DNA from: Planctomycetota bacterium
GTDB taxonomy: Bacteria > Planctomycetota > Brocadiia > Brocadiales > Bathyanammoxibiaceae
DNA: 22,072 nt
Assembly: GCA_030598065.1 (NCBI GenBank)
Contig: JAUVQR010000005.1
Coordinates: 1 to 22,072 of the forward strand
Reading direction: 5' to 3'
The notes beneath the pieces are model-generated. The model did not search any database. It saw only the letters and a program-made list of their open reading frames with translations, and had not been told where the DNA came from. This document shows positions 10,241 through 22,072 of the stretch, one piece after another. Numbering within the stretch: position 1 is the first letter of the stretch; each line of letters starts with the position of its first letter. The position numbers were made by a program, and so were the translations under genes.

Positions 10241-10268
10241 ATTATATGCTATCTCTTTGAGCTGTCAA
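10241..10268 (-). promoter_or_regulatory. Consensus sigma70-type promoter for the MATE gene
   Basis: The minus strand reads TTGACA (10268-10263), a 16-nt spacer, then TATAAT (10246-10241). Only 11 nt separate the -10 box from the ATG at 10229. Confidence 0.55.
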
Positions 10269-10313
10269 CGTTAAGGGCACATATGGTCATTACATGGCAC
10301 AATCAATTTCTCG

Positions 10314-10342
10314 TTGACATCCATTGCCACAACCGATAGAAT
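10314..10342 (+). promoter_or_regulatory. Near-consensus sigma70-type promoter heading the acpS/radical-SAM/KS operon
   Basis: TTGACA (10314-10319), a 17-nt spacer, then TAGAAT (10337-10342). The TTG used as the start of the computed ORF is the -35 hexamer itself. Confidence 0.6.
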
Positions 10343-10391
10343 CCGTACACTTATAGATTGTTTTCTACCGTGCATTTTTAGAGGAGTGGGG

Positions 10392-10766
10392 GTGTTCATA
10401 GGCATAGACCTGGTAGAAGTAGAACGCATCCAGGACCTTTTTACCAGGCATAAGTCTTTTTTGGGACGTGTCTACACCCCGGGAGAGATAGAATACAGCT
10501 TCTCTAAGAAAAATACGTTTGAGCACCTGGCCGCCAGATTTGCCATAAAAGAGGCCGTTGTGAAGGCCCTGGGCACGGGGATGAAGTGGACAGACATTGA
10601 GATGCTAAATGATTCTTCGGGAAGGCCTTACCTCAATCTACATGGCAGGGCGAAGGAAATGGCAAAGGAAAAGGGCGTGGGTGCGTGGGATGTCTCTGTA
10701 ACGCACACCAAAGGACACGCGATAGGGCAGGTATTATTGGTAACCGGCACGCCGTCACGCAAATGA
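10392..10766 (+). CDS. acpS: Holo-[acyl-carrier-protein] synthase (4'-phosphopantetheinyl transferase, AcpS type)
   Basis: The GTG at 10392 has AGAGGAG 6 nt upstream and gives VFIGIDLVEVERI..., the canonical AcpS N-terminus. FAIKEAVVKALG and the ~124-aa size fit the AcpS family. Confidence 0.85.
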   Translation: MFIGIDLVEVERIQDLFTRHKSFLGRVYTPGEIEYSFSKKNTFEHLAARFAIKEAVVKALGTGMKWTDIEMLNDSSGRPYLNLHGRAKEMAKEKGVGAWDVSVTHTKGHAIGQVLLVTGTPSRK

Positions 10767-10839: not shown

Positions 10840-12318
10840 ATGGCAAACAAAAGAAAACTGGTGCTTATCAACCCGCATCCAAAGGGAAACGTGGGCGAAG
10901 AGAACGTCTCCGTGCTGACCCAGATGCCGGTAAACCTGGGATATCTGATATCATTGACCCCGGAGCACTGGGACGTGGACATAATAGACGAGACCCAGGA
11001 ACATGCCATAGACGACAACGACAACCTCGCCTTCCCGGGGGCGGACCTGGTCGGCATAACGTCTGTCAGCTATCAGGCCCCGCGGGCGTATAAGATAGCG
11101 GCCGCCTGCCGGAAGAAAGGTATTCCGGTGGTGATGGGCGGCGTGCATGCGACCATTTACCCCAATGAGGTGGCCAAGCACGTAGACTGCGTGGTGCAGA
11201 GGGAGGCCGTCTCTATCTGGGAAACACTTTTGTCGGACTTTGAGCACGGACGCCTCCAGAAGCTCTACGAAGGAGGTCTGACGCCCCTTGAAAATCTTAA
11301 GTTAATCTACCCCGACCGCGAATTCCTGAAAGAAAAATACGGATACCGTTACTCCGGCATTACAACAACGGCCGGTTGCCCGTTCACCTGTGAATTTTGC
11401 TCTGTGCCGCAGGCCCAGGGGCAAAAGTACCGCGAGAGGCCCATTGAAGACGTACTGGATGAAATGCAGGCCATCGAGGGTAAGTTCCGGGGGCTGGTGC
11501 TCACGGACGAAAATTTCTACGGACACAGTAAGAAGTCGAACGAAAGGGTCAGAAGCCTGTTCAAGGAGATGGTGGACAGGGGGATTTACCAGAACTGGTT
11601 CGGTTTTACCTCGCTCAACATATTTGAGGACGACGAGACCCTGGACTACATGGTCAGGAGCGGTTGCGTCGGAGTGCTCATAGGGATAGAGTCATTGAAC
11701 AAAGACGCCCTGGAGTCGATGAACAAGCACGTCAACCTGCGAATAACGATAGACAAGTATTACGAAGCGATTAATAACATCCGCAAGCATGGCATAGCCG
11801 TGTGGGGAACCGTAATCTTTGGCAACGACGCTGACTCGGTGGACACATTCGACGAGGTTGCAGATTTTGTGCTGGATACCAACCTTGATATAATGACCTG
11901 CGGAATACTTTGCCCGTTTATCAACACACCTCTCTACAAACGCCTGGAGAAGGGCAACAGGCTCTTCCGCACTGATTTCCCGGACGATTGGGTACATTAC
12001 ACGTCCCACCACCTCGTTCACATCCTTAACAACCTTTCCATTCATGAACTGTCTGACGGGATGGAACGCCTAAAAGAGCGTCTTTGGTCCACGGAGGTTA
12101 TCAGGAAAAGGTTCCAAAATTCGAGACAGGTGCTCAACAACAACAATTCCGCCATGTTTGCCCTCAAGGTCAACTGGGACTGGCGGGAAGTCATTGCACA
12201 CTTCATCGACAACCTGAACAAACTGGAAGCCTCCGGCGTCTACCAAGAAGCCCTCGACCGAATTGGCAAGAAGGAAAGATTCAACGAGGCCTCCAGCCTG
12301 CTAACCACAAAGGTCTAG
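10840..12318 (+). CDS. B12-binding-domain radical SAM enzyme (class B), paralogue 1
   Basis: 492 aa. The N-terminal cobalamin-binding-type Rossmann segment reads LVLINPHP...GITSVSYQAPRAYKIAAACRKKGIPVVMGGVHAT. The radical SAM cluster motif CPFTCEFC spans 11377-11400. The C-terminal region may be DUF4070-like, which is unverified. Confidence 0.88.
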   Translation: MANKRKLVLINPHPKGNVGEENVSVLTQMPVNLGYLISLTPEHWDVDIIDETQEHAIDDNDNLAFPGADLVGITSVSYQAPRAYKIAAACRKKGIPVVMGGVHATIYPNEVAKHVDCVVQREAVSIWETLLSDFEHGRLQKLYEGGLTPLENLKLIYPDREFLKEKYGYRYSGITTTAGCPFTCEFCSVPQAQGQKYRERPIEDVLDEMQAIEGKFRGLVLTDENFYGHSKKSNERVRSLFKEMVDRGIYQNWFGFTSLNIFEDDETLDYMVRSGCVGVLIGIESLNKDALESMNKHVNLRITIDKYYEAINNIRKHGIAVWGTVIFGNDADSVDTFDEVADFVLDTNLDIMTCGILCPFINTPLYKRLEKGNRLFRTDFPDDWVHYTSHHLVHILNNLSIHELSDGMERLKERLWSTEVIRKRFQNSRQVLNNNNSAMFALKVNWDWREVIAHFIDNLNKLEASGVYQEALDRIGKKERFNEASSLLTTKV

Positions 12319-12334
12319 AAGAGATACCCATATT

Positions 12335-13540
12335 ATGTCCAGAGTAGTTGTAACAGGCCTTGGTTTAGTGACAGCCATTGGTTCAAACTTAAAGGAATCC
12401 TGGGAAGCGATGCTTAACGCCCAGGACGGTACCGCAGAAATCACATCGTTTGACACCTCCAAGTACAGGGTCCACCGCGCCTGCGAATTAAAGTCTTTGA
12501 ATTCAAACGGCAACAATAAGCAGAAGGAAAAATATAACGTTTACGATTGCCTGTACGCAGCGGCCAAAGACGCCTTTCAGGACAGCGGCATATCCGATTG
12601 CCAGCACCTTCAGCCCGACAGAGTGGGTATTTCCATCGGGACACTGGCCGGAGAGCTATCCGCCTTTGAGCAGACGCTCAGGAAACACCCCAACAACAAG
12701 GCTGACGGGTTCAGTATGGACGTGGTCTGCAGTTATCCTCCCATGACCCTGTCTACCCAACTGGCGGAAGATTTCAACGTTGAAGGCCCTAACGTTATAC
12801 TGATAAACGCCTGCTCATCGGGCAACCATGCACTGTGCTGGGCCTTCGACATGCTGCAGGACGGAAGTGTCGACGCGATGGTGGTGGGCGGCAGCGACGT
12901 GGTGCCGCAAACGGAATTTACCCACTTCCACAACCTGAAGGCGCTGGCGCCGGAAAAATGCCAGCCCTTTGACAAGAACAGGCAGGGCCTGGTGGTGGGC
13001 GCAGGAGCCGGAGTGCTCATCCTTGAGACCTTTGAACACGCGAAGAAGCGCGACGCAAAAATATATGCGGAAGTCATGGGCTACGGCCTTAGCAGTGACG
13101 GTTTTCACATGACCGCTCCTCACCCGAAAGGAGTAGGCGCCATCAGGGCTATGGAAAAGGCCCTCACACACTCAAAGCTCTCTTACAAGGACATAGACTA
13201 TATAAGCGCGCACGGCACGGGTACGTCGCTAAACGACAAGATGGAGACGCTTGCACTCAAGGCCGTCTTCAAGGAAAGGGCTAAAGAGACCCCGTGCAGT
13301 TCGGTGAAGTCTATGATCGGCCATACCATGGGGGCCGCAAGCGCCATCGAGTCGGTAGTTTGTTGTCAGACGATAAGTTCCGGTGAACTCCCGCCAACCA
13401 TAAATTACGAGACAAAGGACCCGGAATGCGACCTGGACTGCGTACCGAATGAGGCGCGAAAAAAGCCGGTTAAATTCGCCCTGAATAATTCCTTTGCCTT
13501 TGGCGGTAACAATGCCAGTACTGTCTTTGGTAGGGTATGA
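12335..13540 (+). CDS. Beta-ketoacyl synthase, FabF/KAS II-like, with an intact Cys-His-His triad
   Basis: 401 aa. The active-site Cys160 sits in INACSSG (tgc at 12812-12814). The two histidines are in SAHGTGTSLND and KSMIGHTMGAAS. Confidence 0.9.
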   Translation: MSRVVVTGLGLVTAIGSNLKESWEAMLNAQDGTAEITSFDTSKYRVHRACELKSLNSNGNNKQKEKYNVYDCLYAAAKDAFQDSGISDCQHLQPDRVGISIGTLAGELSAFEQTLRKHPNNKADGFSMDVVCSYPPMTLSTQLAEDFNVEGPNVILINACSSGNHALCWAFDMLQDGSVDAMVVGGSDVVPQTEFTHFHNLKALAPEKCQPFDKNRQGLVVGAGAGVLILETFEHAKKRDAKIYAEVMGYGLSSDGFHMTAPHPKGVGAIRAMEKALTHSKLSYKDIDYISAHGTGTSLNDKMETLALKAVFKERAKETPCSSVKSMIGHTMGAASAIESVVCCQTISSGELPPTINYETKDPECDLDCVPNEARKKPVKFALNNSFAFGGNNASTVFGRV

Positions 13541-14775
13541 AAAGAAGGGTAGCAATAACCGGCATAGGCGTAATCTCTCCGCTGGGGTTTGGACATGAGG
13601 AGTTCTGGAAGAACCTCACCGAAGGCCGCACCGCGATAGGCCCGATAACGTCTCTGGACGTATCGAACTACCCCTGCAAATTGGCCGCGGAAGTCAAGGG
13701 CCTTAACCCGTCTGATTATCTGGGCGACAAGGGCCTCAAATATCTGACGAAAGGCACAAAGTTCCTTGCCTCCGCCTCAAAACTAGCCCTTGAAGACGCC
13801 GGCCTTATGCAGAGCAGCCACAACCCAGACGGCTTCGGTGTGATAATAGGCTCGGCTCTCGGCAACTATCCCCAAACCACTGACTACACGTATGTCATCC
13901 TCAAAGAGGGACCGGAAAAACTGCTGCCCATGGACAGTTATGACGTCGCTCTAAACTCGTCCACCAACTTTGCCTCGGTATTCTTTAAACTCACCGGTCC
14001 CTCAAGAACCATCACCTCGGGCTTCACGTCCAGCACCGACGCCATCGGCAACGCCTTCACCCTGGTGCAAAAAGGCAGGGCCGACGTGCTGATAGCCGGC
14101 GGGGTGGAACAGATATCTCTCGACAGTTACCTTATATTCCTGATGCGAAAACTGCTGGCGGGCTCACAAGACTCCACGCCGGAGATAAGCGCACCGTTCG
14201 ACATGCGTCGGAACGGGTTCATACTCAGCGAGGGCAGTTACGTCTTCGTGCTGGAGGATATGGAATCCGCGACCAGGCGGGGCGCGCGCATATACGCGGA
14301 AGCGACGGGTCACGGCTTGACCTACATGGGGGCAAAGAGGTTCAGCCTGGAAGAAAAGGTAGACAAGGCCAAGGCCGCCATGGAGCAGGCGCTCCAGCGG
14401 GCCGGGCAGCCGAAGGAGTCGCTTGCGTTAATCTGCGCCAACGGCAACTCCTCTACGCAAACGGACCTCATAGAGGCCAGGGCAATCCAGTCGCTGCTGG
14501 GGGACCGCACCAAGGAGGTGCCGGTCTGTTCCGTAAAGTCTCAGTGCGGTGAATGTTATGGCGCTTCCGGAGCGATGCAGATGGCCTTGTGCCTGCTGGC
14601 TATCGAGAAATCTGCCATCCCGCCCATGATAGGCTATGAAGTGCCAGACAAAGAGTGCGACCTGGGTTTTGTGCTCAATCAGGAGCGCAGGCAAGACACG
14701 AAGGTCGCAATGGTGAACAGCCTCGACCACGACGGAAACTGCTCCTGCCTTATACTTGAAAAAAGGGATATGTAA
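13537..14775 (+). CDS. Ketosynthase-like partner lacking the catalytic triad (chain-length-factor-like)
   Basis: 412 aa with a KS fold. Aligned by eye to the upstream KS, Cys becomes Phe163 (ttc at 14023-14025, TSGFTSS), the first His becomes Asn (ICANGNSS) and the second His becomes Glu (CGECYGA). Its ATG overlaps the KS stop (GTATGA at 13537-13540). Confidence 0.85.
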   Translation: MKRRVAITGIGVISPLGFGHEEFWKNLTEGRTAIGPITSLDVSNYPCKLAAEVKGLNPSDYLGDKGLKYLTKGTKFLASASKLALEDAGLMQSSHNPDGFGVIIGSALGNYPQTTDYTYVILKEGPEKLLPMDSYDVALNSSTNFASVFFKLTGPSRTITSGFTSSTDAIGNAFTLVQKGRADVLIAGGVEQISLDSYLIFLMRKLLAGSQDSTPEISAPFDMRRNGFILSEGSYVFVLEDMESATRRGARIYAEATGHGLTYMGAKRFSLEEKVDKAKAAMEQALQRAGQPKESLALICANGNSSTQTDLIEARAIQSLLGDRTKEVPVCSVKSQCGECYGASGAMQMALCLLAIEKSAIPPMIGYEVPDKECDLGFVLNQERRQDTKVAMVNSLDHDGNCSCLILEKRDM

Positions 14776-14805: not shown

Positions 14806-14826
14806 AGCAGGACCTTTTGTCCTGCT
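14806..14826 (+). other. Stem-loop between the KS pair and the reductase gene (possible attenuator or partial terminator)
   Basis: AGCAGGAC (14806-14813), loop CTTTT, then GTCCTGCT (14819-14826), followed by TCATTAGTTTAT. A lone TATAAT lies just upstream at 14792-14797. Confidence 0.4.
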
Positions 14827-14857: not shown

Positions 14858-16867
14858 ATGGTCGGCTTATTTGACCCAATAAACATAGGTACACTCACGT
14901 TAAAGAACCGTCTGGTTATGACGGCCATGGACCTTGGCTACTCAAACGACGGCCTTGTCAACGACCGTTTTATCGATTTCTACACCGAGAGGGCCGACGG
15001 CGGCACGGGCCTTATCGTCGTAGGCGGATGCTACCCGGAGCGGAACGGCAAGGTATGGAAGAGCATCCTCGGACTGGACGACGACCGCTGCATACCTTCT
15101 CTCACCAGATTCACCGAGGCCATGCACCGCCACGGCGCCAAGACCGCGGCCCAGATACTGCACGGCGGGCGTTACGCCTCCAGCCTGTTCTCCAAAATGC
15201 AGCCCGTCTCGGCGTCAAACATACCGTCACGCCTGGCCAGAGACACCTCCAGGGCTCTGAGCGCCTCTGAAATTAAACAGGTCATACATGGCTACGCGAC
15301 GGCCACAAAAAGAGTAAAAGAAGCCGGTTTTGACGCCGTGGAGATTCACGGTGGCATGGGCTACCTCATCAACCAGTTCCTGTCTCCTATAAGCAATAAG
15401 AGGTCTGACGAATATGGGGGCGGCCTGGATAACAGAATGCGCTTTGCCGTGGAGACCATTGAGGCCATTAGAGAGTCAGTGGGTGACGACTTCCCCATAA
15501 TCTTCAGGCTGTCCGGGGATGAGCTGATGGAGGGCGGTCTCAAGGTCCGGGACAACATAGAAGTAGCCCAGAGACTGGCAAAGGTCGGCGTGGACGCCTT
15601 CCACGTATCTCCCGGCTGGCACGAAAGCAAGGTGCCTATAATGATAATGGTAATCCCGAGGACGGCCTACGCTGTACTGGCCGCCGCCATACGGGAGAAC
15701 GTGGACATACCGGTTATATCCGGCATACGGATTAATGACCTGGCGCTGGCCGACGAACTGCTCAGGGACGGACAGACCGACCTGGTAGCCATAGGCAGGC
15801 CCCTGATAGCCGACCCCGAGCTGCCAAAGAAGTATAAGGAGGGAAGACTCGAAGATATAAGGACCTGCATCGCGTGCAATCAGGGCTGTTTCGACGAGCT
15901 CCTCAATATGAGACCGGTCACCTGCCTGTACAATCCCAGAGCGGGCCGAGAACGGGAGTATAACGTAACGCCCGCGGCTAAAAAGAAAAAGGTCATGGTG
16001 GTCGGCGGCGGTCCCGGAGGGATGGAAGCCGCCAGTGTCGCGGCGCAGAGGGGGCACGACGTGACCCTGTACGAAAAAACGGGGATACTGGGAGGCCAGC
16101 TCTGCTACGCCTACAAACCGCCCGGCCGTGAGGAATTCGCCAACGTGATTACCTATCTGAAGAGGCAGGTCAAGAAGGAAGGAGTAAAGGTGGTCCTGGG
16201 AGTGGAAGTGACCCCGGAGACCGTCAAGACGGAACAACCCGACACACTGATAGTGTCGACCGGCTCTACGCCGTCGGTACCGCCGATACCCGGCATAAAC
16301 AGCGATAGCGTGGCGCTGGCAATGGACGTGTTGGACGGAAAGGCGCCGGTTGGCCGGGAGGTAGTCATAATCGGCGGCGGGACTGTGGGCACCGAGACCG
16401 CCCTGTATGTGGCAAAGCTGGGCAGCATGCGGCCGGACGTAGCCATGTTCCTGCTGAAGAACGACATAATAGACCTGCCGACTGCCCTTAAGAAGGTCTC
16501 CAGGGGCCACAGAAACGTCACCATACTCGAGATGAAGAGGAGGGTGGGCGGCGGTTTTGGCATCTCCACCCGCTGGGTTATGGAAAGGGAGATAGAGGAC
16601 GCAGGCATAAAATCAATTACAAAAATAACGGTCAAAGAGATAAGGCAAGGACCTGAAGGCTGTGTGGTGGTGTACGAAAAGGACGGAAAGGAGACGTATA
16701 TACCCGCGGATACGGTTATAATCGCCACAGGCTACATCCCCAACGACACACTGTCCAAACACCTGAACGGCCTTGTACCTGAGGTATACACCATCGGTGA
16801 TTGTGTAAAGGTAAGGACCGCGTTGGAGGCGATTCATGAAGGTTTTAAGATCGGGCTCACTGTATGA
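14858..16867 (+). CDS. FadH-type 2,4-dienoyl-CoA reductase / enoate reductase family flavoprotein (OYE-like FMN domain, 4Fe-4S, FAD/NAD(P) domain)
   Basis: 669 aa, compared with 672 aa for E. coli FadH as I recall it. It has an OYE-like N-terminus, the cysteine motif CIACNQGCFDELLNMRPVTCLYNP and the dinucleotide fold VMVVGGGPGGMEAA. Confidence 0.87.
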   Translation: MVGLFDPINIGTLTLKNRLVMTAMDLGYSNDGLVNDRFIDFYTERADGGTGLIVVGGCYPERNGKVWKSILGLDDDRCIPSLTRFTEAMHRHGAKTAAQILHGGRYASSLFSKMQPVSASNIPSRLARDTSRALSASEIKQVIHGYATATKRVKEAGFDAVEIHGGMGYLINQFLSPISNKRSDEYGGGLDNRMRFAVETIEAIRESVGDDFPIIFRLSGDELMEGGLKVRDNIEVAQRLAKVGVDAFHVSPGWHESKVPIMIMVIPRTAYAVLAAAIRENVDIPVISGIRINDLALADELLRDGQTDLVAIGRPLIADPELPKKYKEGRLEDIRTCIACNQGCFDELLNMRPVTCLYNPRAGREREYNVTPAAKKKKVMVVGGGPGGMEAASVAAQRGHDVTLYEKTGILGGQLCYAYKPPGREEFANVITYLKRQVKKEGVKVVLGVEVTPETVKTEQPDTLIVSTGSTPSVPPIPGINSDSVALAMDVLDGKAPVGREVVIIGGGTVGTETALYVAKLGSMRPDVAMFLLKNDIIDLPTALKKVSRGHRNVTILEMKRRVGGGFGISTRWVMEREIEDAGIKSITKITVKEIRQGPEGCVVVYEKDGKETYIPADTVIIATGYIPNDTLSKHLNGLVPEVYTIGDCVKVRTALEAIHEGFKIGLTV

Positions 16868-16942: not shown

Positions 16943-17686
16943 ATGTCTTTAAAAGGAAAGGTCGCTGTCGTTACGGGCGGCACCAGGGGCATCGGGAGGG
17001 CGATAGCGCTTGAGCTCGCCGCGAACGGCGTGGACGTCGCCTTCTGCTACGCCAAGAACGTCGAAAAGGCAAAAGAGGTAGAGAGTGAGATAAAGAAGCT
17101 GGGCGTAAGGGCGCTGCCGATGCAGAGTGACGTCTCCGACTTCGCTCAGTCAAAAGAAATGATAGCTAACGCCATAAAGGAGCTCGGTAAGATTGACCTG
17201 CTGGTCAACAACGCCGGCATAACCAGAGACAAGATAATCATGATGATGTCGGAGGATGACTGGAAGTCGGTCATAGACACCAACCTGACCGGCGTCTTCA
17301 ACTGCACAAAGGCCGCCGTGGTACCGATGATGAAGCAGAGGAGCGGCTCCGTAATAAACATAACCTCCGTCAGCGGTCTTGTCGGGATGGCGGGCCAGAC
17401 CAACTACTCGTCCTCAAAGGCGGGGATAATCGGGTTTACCAAGGCGCTGGCCAAGGAGGTGGCCAGACGGGGAGTCAGGGTCAACGCCATAGCCCCCGGA
17501 TTCATTGACACCGAGATGGTGCAGGCCATCAACCAGAAATACCTGGACGAGATGCTGAAACTGGTGCCCCTTGCCCGCGTAGGCAAGGCCGAGGAGGTGG
17601 CACACGTGGTGACGTTCCTGGCCTCAGACCAGGCCAGCTATATAACGGGCTGCGTAATCAACGTAGACGGCGGCATGGCCATGTGA
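16943..17686 (+). CDS. fabG: 3-oxoacyl-ACP reductase (SDR family)
   Basis: 247 aa with GGAG 8 nt upstream. It carries VTGGTRGIGRAIA, NNAG and the catalytic S...YSSSK motif. Confidence 0.9.
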   Translation: MSLKGKVAVVTGGTRGIGRAIALELAANGVDVAFCYAKNVEKAKEVESEIKKLGVRALPMQSDVSDFAQSKEMIANAIKELGKIDLLVNNAGITRDKIIMMMSEDDWKSVIDTNLTGVFNCTKAAVVPMMKQRSGSVINITSVSGLVGMAGQTNYSSSKAGIIGFTKALAKEVARRGVRVNAIAPGFIDTEMVQAINQKYLDEMLKLVPLARVGKAEEVAHVVTFLASDQASYITGCVINVDGGMAM

Positions 17687-17737
17687 CGCCCCTGGGCCGC
17701 GGCAAAACATAAACACTAGACGCGAGGTGAGACCCCC

Positions 17738-18088
17738 ATGCTCTTTCTTGTGAAGGTAGAGATAGAAAAACTTAACCAGATGCCGGTCAAGGATTTTTTT
17801 CAGCTCTTGATAAAGGAATGGGAGTTTTATGAACGGATGAAGAAGAGGGGCAAGGTGCTGGCGGGCGGAAAGCTGGCCGGGAGACGCGGGGCGGCGGCCA
17901 TCTTCGACGCCGAGGACCACGCCGAAATCGAGGCAATCGTGACAAGACTGCCGCTCTTCCCCCTGTTCACAAAGATAGAGATAACGCCGCTGGTGGACCA
18001 GGAAAAGGCCCTGCTGGACGCCCGCAGGATGTTTCAGATGGTGAAAGACCTCGATACCATGATATTCCCCCCGGACAAACCATCATAA
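17738..18088 (+). CDS. Muconolactone delta-isomerase-like small alpha+beta barrel protein
   Basis: 116 aa with GAGGTGA upstream. MLFLVKVEI..., ...IFDAEDHAEIEAIVTRLPLFPLFTKIEITPL aligns by eye with CatC-type MLFHVKM...FDV...LPLFPYMDIEV. Confidence 0.65.
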   Translation: MLFLVKVEIEKLNQMPVKDFFQLLIKEWEFYERMKKRGKVLAGGKLAGRRGAAAIFDAEDHAEIEAIVTRLPLFPLFTKIEITPLVDQEKALLDARRMFQMVKDLDTMIFPPDKPS

Positions 18089-18159
18089 AATTATAAAATT
18101 AGCGTCCGCGGCAGGGCGCACCCTTATACGCTGCAAGCTACATGCAGAAAGGAAGTCTG

Positions 18160-18893
18160 ATGAAACTGGTAAGGATTCTTCATGCCGTTCTTTTTTTGTT
18201 ATGCCTGACGGCATTGACCCAGGACGTGCGCGCGGAACAGGCGGAAAAAGAGACGGCCGGGAAGCCGCACGTAGACGTAGGCACCTTCCTTCAGGAAACG
18301 TTTAAGATGAAGGTGGGCGGCAATATGAGCACCCTCGCCGCCTGGCTGCCGTTCGAGTTCTACGTGGAATCCGCTTACGCCGAAGGCGGTCAATCCAGGG
18401 AACTCCTGAGAAAAGATTTTCAATTCATACAGCCGTACCTCACCATAATCGTTCAAAGCAGCGTTGACCAGCTGGACGGCACCGCTTCGTACGAGAGTGA
18501 AGAAGCCATCCGCGCAAGGGCCGTGGTGAGACAGAAGGACGTGCCGAGGTCAAGCCGCTGGACGCCAAGGATATACCTCCTATGGTATCTGCCACCATGA
18601 TAGCCATGAAGTCAATATTATCGGCGGAAGGCGACCCCAGCGGGGCCAACATGCACGTCCTGGTGTTTCCAAACAAGGGCAAGGACGGCAAACCCATAAT
18701 CGACGCCACAAAGAAGGGTAAGCTGGTGCTGGTGCTGAAACCCGACAAGCAGTTCAACGAGACCGTGTTTATGTGGCGCACCCCGTTCGACGCGATGACC
18801 GCCGCCCCCCCATGCGCCAAGTGCGGAGAGAACCTTTCCGCCCAGTGGTCATACTGCCCCTGGTGCGGCGCCGAACTGCCCCATACGCACTAA
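18160..18893 (+). pseudogene. Signal-peptide protein with a C-terminal zinc ribbon, split by an apparent 1-nt frameshift near 18540
   Basis: ORF 18142-18600 probably starts at 18160 (GGAAG upstream) and begins with the signal peptide MKLVRILHAVLFLLCLTALTQDVRA|EQ. ORF 18582-18893 is open in the -1 frame from 18501. Reading across gives ...VVRQKD / (G)AEVKPLDAKDIPPMVSAT.... The C-terminus reads CAKCGENLSAQWSYCPWCG. Confidence 0.5.
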
Positions 18894-18915
18894 ATGGTAG
18901 ACGACGCGCAGGTGT

Positions 18916-18932
18916 TGTCATTCTGAGCGAAG
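18916..18932 (+). repeat. Copy 2 of repeat core TGTCATTCTGAGCGAAG
   Basis: It is an exact match to 8775-8791. It begins 23 nt after the stop at 18893. Confidence 0.7.
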
Positions 18933-19002
18933 TACCGGGTAGCGCAGGGTCGTACCGTAGGCAGATTCGCCTTTGGCGAACTTTCGCCCTGCCGTTCTCC
19001 AT

Positions 19003-19058
19003 GTAGTTGCCCCATTTATGGGACCTTATAAACGCGCTCGATGAATCGAGCAACTACA
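19003..19058. repeat. Nested inverted-repeat element
   Basis: Outer arms TGTAGTTGC (19003-19011) and GCAACTACA (19050-19058) enclose two small hairpins, CCCAT..ATGGG and GCTCGAT..ATCGAGC. Confidence 0.55.
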
Positions 19059-19087
19059 ACCCCTCAATTGCCTCCCGTCACTCAGGT

Positions 19088-19105
19088 TGTCATTATGAGC
19101 CAAAG
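19088..19105 (+). repeat. Copy 3 (degenerate) of the repeat core
   Basis: TGTCATTATGAGCCAAAG, preceded like copy 2 by GT (copy 1 has AA there), and followed by ...GAGCGCAGCGAAGGGACAGCGAAGGATC. Confidence 0.5.
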
Positions 19106-19208
19106 CCCTGAGCGCAGCGAAGGGACAGCGAAGGATCTGTCGGGTGCCGTGCCAGAGGCAGGTCCGCCTACAGCGTGACGTTTTAACGTGCCATTATACA
19201 ATCGGGGG

Positions 19209-19237
19209 AAAAAAAAGGGCACGACATCGTCGTGCCC
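19209..19237 (-). terminator. Rho-independent terminator of the minus-strand CrtI-like/radical-SAM operon
   Basis: The minus strand reads GGGCACGAC-GAT-GTCGTGCCC (19237-19217) followed by T8 (19216-19209), about 70 nt after the stop at 19309. A second 8-bp hairpin, CGCAGGGC/GCCCTGCG (19267-19286), lies between the stop and this terminator. Confidence 0.85.
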
Positions 19238-19308
19238 CTACGTTTATTTTATTATGAAGCGGGTAGCGCAGGGCTTTAGCCCTGCGGCGCCACCTTGAAG
19301 GTTGTTGA

Positions 19309-20754
19309 CTACGCCGGGAGTGAGATGGTCCTTTCCTGCGTGGAGTAGGTGTCTTTGTAGTAGTCGCCGGATTCCTGCAGCTTGCGCAGGTTTTCAAGGA
19401 CCTGCAAGAAAACCTGGTCCCAGTCCTGGCTGACCCTGAGGGCGAACATGGAGTTGCGCGGGTCGCTGGTCTCCTGCATCGAGACCCTGAATTTCTTGCG
19501 GATGTTGTCGCCCGCGTACACGTTGTCGTAGACGTACTGCATGCCGTCAACAAACTCGTCCAGCGTCATGTCCACAAACTTGTGGACCACGTTGGCGGTC
19601 TCGTAATACTCCCAGTCCTCCGGCAGATTCCTACGAAACAGCCTTTTTTCGGAATCCAGCCTGTAGAATAACGGCGTCTTGGGAAAGGGACAATCCAGAC
19701 CATACGTAAGGATGTCTACCTTGCAGTCGTGTACAAAATCCACCATCTTCTTGAAAGAATCCTTGTCGTCGCCGTCGGCGCCGAAGACGACCGAGGCCCA
19801 TACGATAAGCCCCGCGTCATGTATCTTCCTGATACACTCCTTATAATTAGTGGCTCCCAGTTTCAGATTCACCCTCTTGCCCATCTTCTTGAGCACTTCG
19901 GGGTTGGTGCTCTCTATGCCTACCAGGAAGCCGAAGTTGCCGGACTTTCTCATCAACTGAAGCGCCTCCGCGTCCTGCGAGATATTGAGCGCGGTAAAGC
20001 CCAGCCAGTCCTTCTTGAGTTCCCTGTCTATCATGCCCCGGAAGAGTTCCTTGGCGCGCTCGGCGGAGCGCACGCTGTGACCGTAGAAATTGTCTTCGGC
20101 GAACATCAGGCCCTTATAGTCGGTGGCCGCCATCTCCTCCAGCACGTCTTCAACGGGCCGCTCACGGTATTTTTGTCCCTGGAAGGTGGGTACGCTGCAG
20201 AAATCGCAGCGGTTGGGGCAACCCTTGGTGGTTACTATAGAAGAGAACTTGTAGCCGTACTTCTTCTTCAAGAGTTCTCTGTCGGGATGTACTTTCTTAA
20301 GGATTGACAGGTGGGGAAGACCGCCGTCGTAGCGTTTCTGGAGCTTACCGGCCTCGAAGTCCTTTATGACCTGCGGCCAGACAGTTTCAGCTTCACCCGT
20401 GATGACCGTATCCACGTACTGCACCGCCTCTTCGGCACACACGGAGGCGTGGATACCGCCCATTATCGTGGTGCAGCCATGTTTCTTGGCCAGCTTGGCG
20501 ATATGGTAGGCGCGCGGGGCCTGATAAGTCAGGGCCGTGAGACATACTATGTCAGGGGGGTCAAAGGTTATATCGTCTCCGGCGTCATTCAGCGCCGACT
20601 CGATGTTCTCGTCTACAACGTCAAACTCCCAATCGTCGCCCGGCGTGAGCGCTGCGATATAGCCCAGATTCAACGGCATCTGGACTATTACGCTTATGCT
20701 CTCCTCGCCGTGACGGCCCGGAGGATGAGGGTTCACGAGCATCATCTTCTTCAT
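19309..20754 (-). CDS. B12-binding-domain radical SAM enzyme (class B), paralogue 2
   Basis: 481 aa and colinear with the 10840-12318 product; roughly half the positions are identical by eye. Shared strings include NPHP, QMPxNLGY, YQAPRAY, MGG(I/V)HA, GKLQK, GQKYRERP and NSMFALxV. The cluster motif CPNRCDFC spans 20197-20220. GGGAGA lies upstream, inside the end of the preceding gene. Confidence 0.88.
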   Translation of the reverse strand: MKKMMLVNPHPPGRHGEESISVIVQMPLNLGYIAALTPGDDWEFDVVDENIESALNDAGDDITFDPPDIVCLTALTYQAPRAYHIAKLAKKHGCTTIMGGIHASVCAEEAVQYVDTVITGEAETVWPQVIKDFEAGKLQKRYDGGLPHLSILKKVHPDRELLKKKYGYKFSSIVTTKGCPNRCDFCSVPTFQGQKYRERPVEDVLEEMAATDYKGLMFAEDNFYGHSVRSAERAKELFRGMIDRELKKDWLGFTALNISQDAEALQLMRKSGNFGFLVGIESTNPEVLKKMGKRVNLKLGATNYKECIRKIHDAGLIVWASVVFGADGDDKDSFKKMVDFVHDCKVDILTYGLDCPFPKTPLFYRLDSEKRLFRRNLPEDWEYYETANVVHKFVDMTLDEFVDGMQYVYDNVYAGDNIRKKFRVSMQETSDPRNSMFALRVSQDWDQVFLQVLENLRKLQESGDYYKDTYSTQERTISLPA

Positions 20755-20758
20755 AACC

Positions 20759-22072
20759 TTATCTCCCGTCTCTTAATATCATATTTGCTACCCGCCAACC
20801 GGAAGACACAACCGCACACACTCCCGGCCCGGGGTTGGTCCAATGCCCCGCGAGGTAGAGGTTCTCTACCGGGGTCTTGTTAGCGGTCCTGCCCGGACCC
20901 GTCTGCCCTAACGTGACGGCCCATCCGTAGGCAGCGCCCTTCGCATTCAGCGTATAACGCTCAAGCGTCTTGGGCGTCGCCGCGTCCACCACCTCGATGT
21001 GCTTCTCAAGATTGGGCACAAAACCCTCAAGGTAGCGTATTGTACCCTTCGTAAGTCTATCTTTCAAGTCTTTCCAGTTCTCAATCTCGTCGTATTTTTC
21101 CTCTATAGTGGCCACCACGGTTATCTCCTGCCGGCCTTTTGTCGCAAGCGACTGGTCCACCATGGTAGGCGCCGATATGTACTTCCACTGATGGTTCGGG
21201 CTATGATAAAAGCCTCTCTTAAAATTACTTAGGTTAATTTCCGGGTCAAGCCCCAAATACAGTAGAAAATATGATGGACTTTCCTTCATCCCCCTCATCC
21301 TGTCCATAAACGCGGGGTCAACCTGTTCTTTATCCTTTATCAGTTTAAAAAAAGTCTGTCTGGCGTCAATGTTTGATATTACGTATTCCGCGCCGATATC
21401 GCCGCCCTCATCCAGTCTCACGCCTGCCACCCTGTTGCCCTTGAGAAACATCTCTTCCACCCTGGAAGACAGCAGCAGGTCGCCGCCGGAATCCCTGAGT
21501 TTTTTGGCAAATGCGTCGGCAAAGCCTTGCGTGCCCCCCCTCGGATACCATGCGCCGTCTCTGAGATAGTTCACCAGCATCTGGCACATGCCTATGCTAG
21601 AGACCTCGTGGGCCGGCGAGCCAAGATAACCCCACTGTCCCGCCAGCGTCGCCTTCAGTTCCGGATCGTCGAAGAAGCCGTCCAGCATGGCGCCGTATGT
21701 TTTTTCCCTATACCTCTCAAGGGTGGGGCTACGCTCCGATTCATTTATTATCGCCCTGTAGAGTTTTACGAGCTCGCCGAAGAACCCGGATATGTTCTCC
21801 TTCTCTGCGGGATATCTCTTCTGCAGGGACGACTGATAGTCGTCAATGTCGGCCGGAATCTCTACAGAGAACGAGGGGAATATGAGGTTGTCCATCGGGT
21901 CCAGCCTGAAAAAATCCAATTCTATTTCCAGCTCTTTCAGGCATCTGTCCACGATGCTGTACTTGCCGCAGCCGCCTATATGGTGCACGGCGGCATCGAA
22001 GAGGAATCCCCCGCGTTTGAATGAAGTGCAATAGCCCCCGGGGATATTGTGCTGCTCTACGACCAGCGTCCT
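20759..22072 (-). CDS. FAD-dependent oxidoreductase of the phytoene desaturase (CrtI)/amine-oxidase superfamily, 5' end outside the window
   Basis: The frame stays open to the window edge (RTLVVEQHNIPGGYCTSFKRGGFLFDAAVHHIGG...), so the computed start at 21988 is an internal GTG. The C-terminal motif LYLAGHWTNPGPGVCAVVSSG is present. The stop lies 4 nt before the radical SAM ATG. Confidence 0.82.
   Translation of the reverse strand, partial: RTLVVEQHNIPGGYCTSFKRGGFLFDAAVHHIGGCGKYSIVDRCLKELEIELDFFRLDPMDNLIFPSFSVEIPADIDDYQSSLQKRYPAEKENISGFFGELVKLYRAIINESERSPTLERYREKTYGAMLDGFFDDPELKATLAGQWGYLGSPAHEVSSIGMCQMLVNYLRDGAWYPRGGTQGFADAFAKKLRDSGGDLLLSSRVEEMFLKGNRVAGVRLDEGGDIGAEYVISNIDARQTFFKLIKDKEQVDPAFMDRMRGMKESPSYFLLYLGLDPEINLSNFKRGFYHSPNHQWKYISAPTMVDQSLATKGRQEITVVATIEEKYDEIENWKDLKDRLTKGTIRYLEGFVPNLEKHIEVVDAATPKTLERYTLNAKGAAYGWAVTLGQTGPGRTANKTPVENLYLAGHWTNPGPGVCAVVSSGWRVANMILRDGR

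Follow-up and report, generated by a model that had tools for sequence, protein, structure and literature searches.

A FabF-like ketosynthase and its probable non-catalytic partner in a kuste2802-2805-type operon of a probable Brocadiia lineage

Introduction

Ladderane biosynthesis is still unsolved. The main candidates for it are FabF-like pairs whose genes lie beside one for a B12 radical-SAM enzyme. For Kuenenia stuttgartiensis, the cluster kuste2802-2805 was described, comprising acpS and genes for a B12 radical-SAM enzyme, a FabF and a "non-canonical FabB" (Rattray et al. 2009, Javidpour et al. 2016). Kuste2803 was described as a SAM radical enzyme that carries a B12 domain (Rattray 2009). 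Expression of Kuste2804 and Kuste2805 in E. coli yielded insoluble proteins and no new product. The window analyzed here, the whole stretch of 22,072 nucleotides, harbors a pair of this kind, KS-1 and KS-2, whose second member has none of the catalytic triad residues. In type II polyketide synthases (PKS), an active KS-alpha is likewise encoded beside a triad-less homologue (KS-beta), the stop codon of one gene often overlapping the start codon of the other. An earlier note on this DNA had taken KS-2 for a CLF-like partner of KS-1 and had compared the pair with those of type II PKS and aryl-polyene systems. The locus raises the question of what the degenerate protein does, and with which partner.

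Results

Both genes are located on the plus strand, KS-1 at positions 12335 to 13540 (401 amino acids) and KS-2 at 13537 to 14775 (412 amino acids). They overlap in an ATGA (13537-13540) that was read directly, and the earlier note had assigned the reading frames and the overlap correctly. Motif reading and alignment revealed an intact triad in KS-1, consisting of Cys160 in ACSSG (codon 12812-12814), His293 in HGTGT (13211-13213) and His330 in GHTMG (13322-13324). For KS-2, the HMMER alignment with Bacillus subtilis FabF (4ls5), which spans residues 2-409, confirmed the exchanges C to F, H to N and H to E that had been reported by eye: Phe163 in GFTSS (14023-14025), Asn302 in ANGNSS (14440-14442) and Glu339 in GECYG (14551-14553). 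Since two MAFFT alignments placed these three residues identically, the by-eye alignment was not offset. Misalignment of the triad is ruled out by the HMMER alignments with FabF and with chain C of the anammox structure 9s5h and by both MAFFT alignments.

From the ATGA overlap, the earlier note had deduced a stoichiometric co-translation. Co-expression of the two genes is supported by the overlap, a 1:1 stoichiometry is not proven by it. Stop/start overlaps of four nucleotides are common in bacterial operons generally. In orthologous loci, the exact ATGA was retained in close relatives only (L001-L005, L015, L016). The KS-1 stop and the KS-2 start are separated by 2 nt in L006-L008 and L011 and by 23-50 nt in L010 and L012, while L009 has the junction sequence of the former group but lacks a KS-1 ORF to score. 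Nonetheless, KS-1 adjoins KS-2 with 0-50 nt between them in all orthologous loci spanning the two genes (L001-L008, L010-L012, L014-L016), down to a KS-2 identity of about 46%. It is the tight adjacency that is conserved, not the 4-nt overlap itself. This matters for the question whether KS-2 may be the dead partner of another ketosynthase, either the Cluster I amxFabF2 next door or the housekeeping FabF, with its adjacency to KS-1 reflecting co-regulation only. A second pair of an active and a dead ketosynthase does occur a few kb away in the same lineage, and all active and dead subunits have one fold and one dimer geometry in common. However, besides the conserved adjacency, the clades of the active and of the dead subunits run in parallel, as would be expected if the pair was duplicated as a unit, and single-polypeptide fusions of an active and a dead ketosynthase exist within the family. 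We regard a different partner as quite unlikely.

The 120 closest homologues of KS-2 originate from Brocadiia and other Planctomycetota MAGs. Phe163 and Glu339 are each present in all of them (120/120), while Asn302, and with it the full F/N/E set, is found in about 116-117 of the 120. Comparison with orthologues yielded dN/dS values of 0.067-0.097 for KS-2 and 0.084-0.094 for KS-1; purifying selection on KS-2 is as strong as on KS-1. The AlphaFold model of KS-2 (pLDDT 93.4) revealed a confident FabF fold. In a Foldseek search against a PDB library up to 2026-04-08, which did not contain 9s5h, the nearest matches were FabFs, headed by that of B. subtilis (TM 0.95), and 6kxd_A ranked 35th. That all three catalytic residues are lost might be expected of a functionless, decaying fabF duplicate. 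However, decay is refuted by the dN/dS values (0.07-0.10, equal to KS-1) and by the near-invariance of the substituted residues themselves, and the ORF of KS-2 is intact and colinear with the crystallised protein, its predicted fold being confident. A pseudogene is therefore extremely improbable.

The top PDB matches of both proteins are subunits of one anammox heterodimer, amxFabF2 and amxFabFmut of Brocadia fulgida (together amxFabFhet; 9s5h chains B and C; Broful02171/02170, corresponding to kuste3605/3606; also 9s5i; Granatino et al., bioRxiv 2026). KS-1 matched 9s5h_B with 394 bits and 46% identity, KS-2 matched 9s5h_C with 302 bits and 38% identity, residues 2-409 aligning with 2-409 without a gap. 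This shared match favors the proposal that KS-2 may act as a non-catalytic, CLF-like partner of KS-1. With other ketosynthases, KS-2 reached 250 bits (B. subtilis FabF), 191 bits (actinorhodin KS) and 144 bits (actinorhodin CLF, 1tqy_B). The NCBIfam model NF005589 is passed by KS-1 (396.9 against a cutoff of 387), whereas both proteins are below the cutoff of the fabF equivalog TIGR03150 (493.75; KS-1 411.5, KS-2 326.7). Measured against a canonical FabF, KS-1 possesses the triad but a score below the cutoff, and KS-2 lacks both the triad and a sufficient score.

In an NJ tree, which contained no KS-beta sequence, the proteins fall into two clades, one of the active partners and one (bootstrap 99) of all the degenerate ones, amxFabFmut among them. 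KS-2 clusters with the degenerate partners, apart from the active ones. As the earlier note had suggested, KS-2 represents a degenerate lineage distinct from the classical KS-beta, judging by the 250 versus 144 bits and the degenerate clade. Inside this clade, KS-2 and Scalindua proteins with the F/N/E set (53-56% identity) constitute an anammox F/N/E clade (bootstrap 94) apart from amxFabFmut, which is located in a different sub-clade. KS-1 joins amxFabF2 with a bootstrap of 100. Given the identities of 46% and 38% and the separate sub-clades, KS-1 and KS-2 are paralogues and not orthologues of kuste3605/3606.

The paralogous pair has been studied biochemically. AmxFabF2 and amxFabFmut form an obligate heterodimer, its substrate tunnel being lined by the dead subunit; they co-purify and only together catalyze malonyl-ACP decarboxylation and acetoacetyl-ACP formation (bioRxiv 10.64898/2026.05.19.726425). 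Phe135, Thr138 and Val139 of amxFabFmut line the tunnel, and their mutation shifts the chain-length preference for probes (bioRxiv 10.64898/2026.05.19.726425). The corresponding segment of KS-2, PMDSYDVALN (residues 131-140, positions 13927 to 13956, plus strand), belongs to the helix-loop-helix that lines the acyl tunnel of the active subunit in the crystallised paralogue. It is almost invariant (PMxSYDVALN): P131, M132, S134, D136, V137, A138, L139 and N140 were found in all 120 homologues, Y135 in 115 of them. An electrostatic asymmetry of the helix-loop-helix was also considered, but the by-eye charge count was uninformative, as it failed to recover the published asymmetry in the crystallised pair itself.

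Outside this segment, N304, K334 and E339 show little or no variation across 65 diverse degenerate homologues, and F163 is invariant within the anammox clade of degenerate partners. The near-invariance of N304, K334 and E339 could mean that some ligand binding or catalysis persists and that KS-2 is not purely a scaffold. KS-2 might then itself be an enzyme or an acyl-ACP-binding protein, for instance by recruiting or loading a non-FAS moiety as a homodimer via a pocket formed by Asn304, Lys334 and Glu339. Such an independent role was proposed as "pathway b", where a ready-made ladderane unit enters fatty-acid synthesis by means of a divergent FabF (Rattray 2009), and the conservation of N304, K334, E339 and F163 exceeds what a simple filler would need. 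Moreover, the paralogous dead subunit possesses a tunnel of its own, occupied by a PEG molecule in the crystal, and amxFabFmut of S. brodae crystallised as a homodimer. On the other hand, position 163 does not provide a nucleophile and both decarboxylation histidines are missing. The paralogous dead subunit alone is inactive and shows no cross-link with acyl-ACP probes, the helix-loop-helix of the amxFabFmut homodimer is disordered, and according to the preprint its results refute an early ladderane proposal (bioRxiv 10.64898/2026.05.19.726425). An independent function of KS-2 is thus unlikely.

KS-1 and KS-2 are part of an operon with the gene order acpS, B12 radical-SAM, KS-1, KS-2, OYE/FadH-type reductase, FabG and MIase-like protein, all on the plus strand. 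A sigma-70-like promoter sequence (10314 to 10342, plus strand; TTGACA, 17 nt spacer, TAGAAT; 11 of 12 consensus matches) precedes the probable start of acpS by about 45 nt; it is a consensus match only, near background frequency. The acpS gene (10386 to 10766), in gene order the counterpart of kuste2802, encodes a holo-ACP synthase (4'-phosphopantetheinyl transferase; Pfam ACPS, E=7.5e-18; TIGR00516, 80.2 bits, cutoff 59.8). Its mechanical ORF begins at a TTG (10314); relatives are called at 124-126 amino acids, and the probable start is a GTG at 10386 or 10392, preceded by a GAGGAG motif. It is followed by rSAM1 (10840 to 12318; Pfam B12-binding and Radical_SAM), the counterpart of kuste2803, which lies directly upstream of KS-1 in all loci that reach this far (L001, L002, L004-L008, L010-L012, L014-L016). 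Downstream of KS-2, a hairpin of 8 bp with a weak T tail (14806 to 14826, plus strand) is not significant on its own, since 12 terminator-like sites were detected in the region and 9.7 were expected; it could be an attenuator or nothing. The next gene (14858 to 16867; Pfam Oxidored_FMN and Pyr_redox_2) encodes an old-yellow-enzyme/FadH-type Fe-S flavoprotein reductase, whose architecture resembles 2,4-dienoyl-CoA reductase. It directly follows KS-2 in 13 of 15 Brocadiia-type loci (L001, L003, L004, L006-L012, L014-L016), the loci L002 and L005 ending at KS-2. FabG, a 3-oxoacyl-ACP reductase (16943 to 17686; TIGR01830, 331 bits, cutoff 297.75), is syntenic in L001, L003, L006, L008, L010, L011 and L015. 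The last conserved gene of the operon (17738 to 18088) encodes a small muconolactone-isomerase-like protein (PF02426; Pfam MIase, E=8.8e-15) and, with 80-91% identity in L001, L006, L008, L010 and L011, is the most conserved one.

On the minus strand follow rSAM2 (19309 to 20754), a second B12-binding radical-SAM enzyme by Pfam, similar to kuste3608, and PDH (20759 to 22072), a phytoene-desaturase-like flavoprotein similar to kuste3607 (Pfam Amino_oxidase) that is cut by the window end. They constitute the tail of a convergent Cluster I; in this lineage, the Kuste2804/2805-type operon and the Cluster I homologue are arranged tail to tail. RSAM2 is 46-49% identical to rSAM1 and its orthologues. 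Assignment of rSAM1 and rSAM2 to TIGR04072 ("rSAM_ladder_B12") was rejected, as both stayed below its cutoff of 360 (73 and 78 bits). PDH scored 127 bits with TIGR02734 (crtI_fam), under the cutoff of 238. The 95%-identical relative L015 has the minus-strand order dead KS, PDH, rSAM. There, a PDH orthologue of 475 amino acids is followed, just past the equivalent of the window's right end, by an amxFabFmut orthologue with Glu, Asn and Asp at the triad positions. With 61% identity to 9s5h_C and its position beside PDH and rSAM2, it is a closer relative of amxFabFmut than KS-2 (38%), for which orthology with amxFabFmut is rejected.

The nearest relatives carry the labels Planctomycetota, Brocadiales, Brocadiia JP1, Ca. 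Hypogeohydataceae and Ca. Subterrananammoxibius, and Scalindua is also represented among the relatives; JP1 and Hypogeohydataceae possess core anammox genes. Neither a hydrazine-synthase gene nor rRNA was found within the window. The host appears to be an early-branching lineage of the anammox class Brocadiia from an aquifer or sediment.

Discussion

The conservation of the F/N/E set, the dN/dS values, the near-invariant PMxSYDVALN segment, the FabF fold and the position in the degenerate-partner clade suggest, by homology with the crystallised pair, that KS-2 most likely forms a heterodimer with KS-1 as its non-catalytic subunit, which shapes the tunnel. There is a good probability that the two proteins are the counterparts of Kuste2804 and Kuste2805 in a conserved operon, with KS-2 as the dead partner that shapes the tunnel of KS-1. 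Active only as a complex, as the paralogous pair suggests, KS-1 would use its triad Cys160/His293/His330 for the decarboxylative Claisen condensation of an acyl chain bound to ACP. KS-2, presumably capable of neither acylation nor decarboxylation, would take the position of a second KS-1 molecule in a 1:1 pair with KS-1. Its helix-loop-helix (residues about 110-140) would close and shape the acyl tunnel of KS-1 and form part of the ACP docking surface, and may in this way set the accepted chain lengths or shapes. Phe163, Asn304, Lys334 and Glu339 would fill and stabilise the vestigial active-site pocket. The idea of the earlier note that the pair sets an unusual chain length or scaffolds a polyene is speculation.

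The cluster has long been a candidate for the synthesis of ladderanes or other unusual fatty acids or lipids in anammox bacteria. However, modules of a ketosynthase, a dead ketosynthase (F-x-E partner) and a B12 radical-SAM enzyme also occur in a Blastocatellia MAG and on other non-anammox contigs. Therefore, a ladderane-specific link is unproven, and caution is needed in calling the module ladderane-specific. It is conceivable, though doubtful, that the Kuste2804/2805-type heterodimer is not a redundant copy of the Cluster I pair but another elongation module that differs in function and comes with a B12 radical-SAM enzyme, an OYE/FadH-type reductase, FabG and an MIase-like protein of its own. 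In a possible division of labor, Cluster I would initiate and build short chains, and the KS-1/KS-2 module, with its Y135/A138/L139 tunnel and Phe-plugged partner, might then extend radical-SAM-modified (cyclised or branched) acyl-ACPs. If this is true, the module would define a wider class of fatty-acid synthases with radical-SAM tailoring, as yet uncharacterised, and ladderane synthesis would be one specialised form of it. Regardless of this, the second pair is as constrained as the crystallised one, its partner-side tunnel segment being almost invariant, and this constraint, the operon content and the tail-to-tail layout may guide the choice of constructs for reconstitution.

Comparison with known systems

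The closest counterpart of the locus is kuste2802-2805 of K. stuttgartiensis, which has the same order of acpS, B12 radical-SAM gene, active FabF and dead KS and belongs to the class Brocadiia, the probable class of the host as well; the order also occurs in 11 other loci (L001, L002, L004-L008, L010-L012, L015). For Kuste2805, Phe163, Asn298, Asn300, Cys302, Lys328, Glu333, Gln342 and Phe392 were tabulated in FabB numbering (Rattray 2009, Table 2, PMC2649909). The aligned residues of KS-2 are F163, N302, N304, S306, K334, E339, Q348 and H398. Thus, six of the eight positions, including all three of the triad, are identical, while Cys302 corresponds to Ser and the gate residue Phe392 to His in KS-2. 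The Kuste2805 sequence (CAJ73556) was not among the 120 closest homologues and was compared via the published table, so the orthology rests on this table, gene order and taxonomy. Contrary to the novelty implied by the earlier note, the Phe/Asn/Glu pattern was already in print in 2009 (PMC2649909, Table 2), and the arrangement of KS-1 with a dead KS-2 is known; the window adds nothing new in kind. While the published cluster comprises four genes, the operon in the window and in the Brocadiia loci reaching downstream regularly carries the OYE/FadH-type reductase, FabG and the MIase-like protein in addition.

The crystallised pair shares with KS-1/KS-2 the linkage to a B12 radical-SAM gene. AmxFabF2 has the 6-residue deletion common to the active subunits, as does KS-1. 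AmxFabFmut has the same length as KS-2, is colinear with it and contains Asn and Glu at the first and second His position and the GECY motif. B. subtilis FabF is the nearest structure for amxFabFmut, too (bioRxiv 10.64898/2026.05.19.726425). By contrast, the Cys position is occupied by Val or Thr in the crystallised family and by Phe in KS-2, and the tunnel residues are F135/T138/V139 in amxFabFmut and Y135/A138/L139 in KS-2. With identities of only 46% and 38% and these differing residues, specificity is therefore not transferable between the pairs. Cluster I also differs in content, since it possesses amxACP, amxFabZ and PDH, while the KS-1/KS-2 operon contains acpS, the OYE-type reductase, FabG and the MIase-like protein.

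Type II PKS were represented by the actinorhodin system (1tqy) and by highly reducing pairs, those for ishigamide (Iga11/Iga12, 6kxd) and aryl polyenes (ApeO/ApeC). Their heterodimer has one active site, and its dead subunit bounds the acyl cavity, as also described in the preprint. The gene of the classical KS-beta directly follows that of KS-alpha, and their stop and start codons are usually coupled, which matches KS-2. However, the classical aromatic CLF has Gln at the active-site Cys position where KS-2 has Phe163, and KS-2, unlike a KS-beta, is nearer to FabF than to the actinorhodin CLF. Its neighborhood is fatty-acid-like with radical-SAM genes; no cyclase, aromatase or ACP gene was found within the window. 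An aryl-polyene or aromatic type II PKS setting is rejected on these grounds and because FabF and the anammox pair are the closest matches of both proteins. With the canonical FabF, KS-2 shares the fold and an alignment over the full length, and KS-1 shares every catalytic motif. While canonical FabF is a homodimer with a Cys-His-His triad, KS-2 lacks the Cys and both His.

The KS-1/KS-2 gene pair

Two FabF-like open reading frames on the plus strand, KS-1 (12335-13540, 401 aa) and KS-2 (13537-14775, 412 aa), share an ATGA at 13537-13540 in which the TGA of KS-1 is overlapped by the ATG of KS-2. KS-1 contains the motifs ACSSG (Cys160), HGTGT (His293) and GHTMG (His330). In a full-length HMMER alignment of KS-2 with B. 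subtilis FabF (4ls5), the catalytic Cys is replaced by Phe163, the first His by Asn302 and the second His by Glu339, a placement that was reproduced by MAFFT alignments. Since the KS-1 motifs are present and both alignment methods agree on KS-2, the earlier note, which had reported from a by-eye alignment a coupled ketosynthase pair with a triad-less partner, was correct as written, and its alignment was not offset. Both proteins matched the Pfam ketoacyl-synt N and C domains and both missed the NCBIfam fabF equivalog cutoff of 493.75 (KS-1 411.5, KS-2 326.7). Stop and start codons of the pair overlap in close relatives, are separated by 2 nt in the related loci L006-L008 and L011 and by 23-50 nt in L010 and L012. 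This tight spacing favours co-synthesis of the two proteins.

Constraint and relatives of KS-2

The best 120 homologues of KS-2 came from Planctomycetota, Brocadiales, Scalindua and Ca. Hypogeohydataceae MAGs. At the triad positions, 117 of them have F/N/E, three F/S/E and one F/H/E. The latter is a KS-2 orthologue with 78% identity (P0008, locus L002 of the Brocadiales MAG K_2_bin.28), the only one among the 120 with a His at the first histidine position (CAHGNSS). Phe163, Lys334 and Glu339 are invariant in this set, and residues 131-140 (PMxSYDVALN) are almost so, with Tyr135 in 115 and Ala138 and Leu139 in all 120 homologues. KS-2 might be a decaying duplicate, but this explanation is refuted by the selection data, as dN/dS values of 0.067-0.097 were determined for KS-2 against orthologues at 79-82% identity, compared to 0.084-0.094 for KS-1.

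When 1.84 billion cluster representatives were scanned exhaustively with HMMER, the 50%-identity clusters nearest to KS-2 proved to be, for the most part, degenerate KS proteins that stand alone. Sixteen of these clusters have F-[N/S/A/C]-E at the triad positions; in further ones, the Cys position is occupied by I, M, E, Q, S, Y or N and the second His position by Glu. The family also includes fused proteins of ~820 aa, in which an intact Cys/His/His ketosynthase is followed by a degenerate one. In a neighbour-joining tree (100 bootstraps), all degenerate partners, among them KS-2, amxFabFmut and the C-terminal halves of the fused proteins, fell into one clade (bootstrap 99), within which the F/N/E proteins of the anammox group branch together (bootstrap 94). 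A separate clade (bootstrap 100) unites amxFabF2, the KS-1 orthologues and the N-terminal half of the fused protein P0127, to which the other two fused N-terminal halves attach at a bootstrap of 78. These parallel clades of active and degenerate partners indicate that the active/dead pair is old and was duplicated as a unit. KS-2 may alternatively be partnered with a ketosynthase other than KS-1, a possibility against which the universal adjacency to KS-1, the parallel clades and the fused forms all speak.

A distinct CLF-like lineage had been proposed in the earlier note. KS-2 scored 250 bits against B. subtilis FabF (4ls5) and 144 bits against the actinorhodin CLF (1tqy_B); it thus resembles true FabFs more closely than the latter, and its lineage is separate from the classical KS-beta. 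This supports the proposal of the note, though the lineage is already present in the literature.

Some members of the family reside in other genetic surroundings. The fused polypeptides of loci L018/L019 (8001-10475, ~820 aa) belong to type II PKS-like clusters that also encode ACPs, a ketoreductase, a polyketide cyclase, an acyltransferase and two additional KS. Modules comprising a KS, a dead KS (F/S/E or F/A/E) and flanking B12 radical-SAM genes, two or three in number, were found in L021 (7799-14133; Blastocatellia MAG, GCA_035652355.1) and in the unassigned metagenome contig L017 (1-10051), where genes for an enoyl-CoA hydratase, another KS and a PDH-like protein are present as well. Because such modules occur outside anammox bacteria, a link to ladderanes is not established.

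The crystallised paralogue and a possible role of KS-2

Among solved structures, chains B and C of PDB 9s5h/9s5i were the top matches for both proteins. In 9s5h, these chains are the amxFabF2 and amxFabFmut proteins of Brocadia fulgida. KS-1 matched chain B with 394 bits and KS-2 chain C with 302 bits, residues 2-409 aligning to 2-409 without a gap. That KS-1 and KS-2 are the amxFabF2/amxFabFmut pair itself is ruled out by the kuste2802-2805 gene order and the Kuste2805-type residues. An AlphaFold2 model of KS-2 (65 homologues) reached a mean pLDDT of 93.4 and its best PDB fold match was B. subtilis FabF (TM 0.95), likewise the nearest structure for amxFabFmut (bioRxiv 10.64898/2026.05.19.726425).

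For this sister pair, the concept of a CLF-like heterodimer was demonstrated in 2026. In the crystal, Phe135, Thr138 and Val139 of amxFabFmut form part of the wall of the active subunit's acyl tunnel, and mutations of these residues alter the chain-length preference of cross-linking probes (bioRxiv 10.64898/2026.05.19.726425). They correspond to Tyr135, Ala138 and Leu139 of KS-2. By homology, KS-1 and KS-2 probably form a heterodimer that is active only as a complex. KS-1 would be the sole catalytic subunit, KS-2 would take the place of the other protomer in a FabF-type dimer, and a helix-loop-helix of KS-2 would close the acyl tunnel of KS-1 and part of the ACP docking surface. Closing the tunnel in this way, KS-2 would act as a chain-length or shape factor. 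The present analysis itself established the facts of sequence, conservation, fold, phylogeny and synteny, whereas the heterodimer, its complex-only activity and the shaping of the tunnel are deduced from the paralogue. Less probably, KS-2 may have a binding or catalytic role of its own, which is the recruitment idea of Rattray. The near-invariance of N304, K334 and E339 across the family lends it some support, but the paralogue amxFabFmut is inert alone.

Operon and neighbouring cluster

Upstream of the KS pair, also on the plus strand, lie acpS (holo-ACP synthase) and rSAM1 (10840-12318), which encodes a B12-binding radical-SAM enzyme. The mechanical start of the acpS frame, TTG 10314, coincides with the -35 box of a plus-strand promoter match; hence, translation probably begins at GTG 10386 or 10392. 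The promoter match is one of two near-consensus sigma-70 matches that point away from each other in the gap separating acpS from the MATE transporter gene (10241-10342), one at 10268-10241 on the minus strand (12/12 consensus) and one at 10314-10342 on the plus strand (11/12).

KS-2 is followed on the same strand by a gene for an OYE/FadH-type Fe-S flavoprotein (14858-16867) whose architecture is that of a 2,4-dienoyl-CoA reductase. This gene is located directly 3' of KS-2 in 13 of 15 related Brocadiia-type loci, the remaining two stopping at KS-2. The final gene of the operon (17738-18088, plus strand) encodes a muconolactone-isomerase-like (MIase-like) protein of 116 aa (PF02426). It is the most conserved one, with 80-91% identity in loci where KS-2 shows just 64-79%, and its product might isomerise or cyclise the acyl chain. 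Segments of the order acpS, rSAM, KS-1, KS-2, OYE/FadH-type reductase, FabG, MIase-like were detected in 12 Brocadiia MAG loci, including Ca. Subterrananammoxibius and JP1, which has been described as an anammox bacterium (bioRxiv 10.1101/2023.04.27.538623). The operon thus comprises a PPTase, a B12 radical-SAM enzyme, a dienoyl-reductase-like flavoenzyme, a ketoreductase and the MIase-like protein. ACP and dehydratase genes are absent between acpS and the MIase-like gene; presumably, these functions are supplied by the neighbouring Cluster I (kuste3603-3608-like).

Downstream on the minus strand lie a second B12 radical-SAM gene, rSAM2 (19309-20754), and a truncated phytoene-desaturase-like gene (PDH, 20759-22072). 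In the closest public relative, L015 (95% protein and ~94.7% DNA identity), the minus strand continues beyond the equivalent of the right end, giving the order dead KS, PDH, rSAM2 (17520-21239), which identifies rSAM2 and the truncated PDH as the tail of a Cluster I homologue. The dead KS of L015 has Glu/Asn/Asp at the triad and is 61% identical to 9s5h_C, but only 38% to KS-2; it is an amxFabFmut orthologue. Both KS pairs are present in this lineage, tail to tail, the two candidate ladderane clusters being convergent neighbours. rSAM1 and rSAM2 are paralogous to each other, rSAM2 sharing 46-49% identity with rSAM1 orthologues, and neither of the two reached the cutoff of 360 bits of NCBIfam TIGR04072 'rSAM_ladder_B12' (73 and 78 bits).

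Between the clusters, two overlapping frames at 18142-18893 (152 and 103 aa) correspond to a single gene in L015, whose 253-aa product resembles a signal peptide at its N-terminus and carries a CxxC...CxxC motif at its C-terminal end; the change of frame near 18540 reflects a frameshift mutation or else an error of assembly. An indel distinguishes L015 15391-17519 (~2.1 kb, with a SIR2-like gene) from the ~415 bp at 18893-19308, apart from which both sequences are 94-95% identical.

Comparison with the Kuenenia clusters

The order acpS, B12-rSAM, KS-1, KS-2 is identical to that of kuste2802-2805 of Kuenenia, described as acpS, B12-rSAM, FabF and a non-canonical KS (Rattray et al. 2009, PMC2649909; Javidpour et al. 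2016, PMC4790861). The published four-gene cluster is here extended by the OYE/FadH-type gene and FabG, and the MIase-like protein is not among the kuste2802-2805 genes as published (PMC2649909, PMC4790861). The Kuste2805 gene, called 'non-canonical FabB', was expressed in 2016 but the product was insoluble (PMC4790861). Kuste2805 has Phe163, Asn298, Asn300, Cys302, Lys328, Glu333, Gln342 and Phe392 (Rattray Table 2, PMC2649909). Six of the eight residues recur in KS-2, the three triad positions among them, whereas Kuste3606/9s5h_C has Val, Asn, Tyr, Gly, Lys, Glu, Gln and Arg. The substitution pattern of KS-2 was therefore already published in 2009 (PMC2649909), and the pair is probably another orthologue of the known 2804/2805 type.
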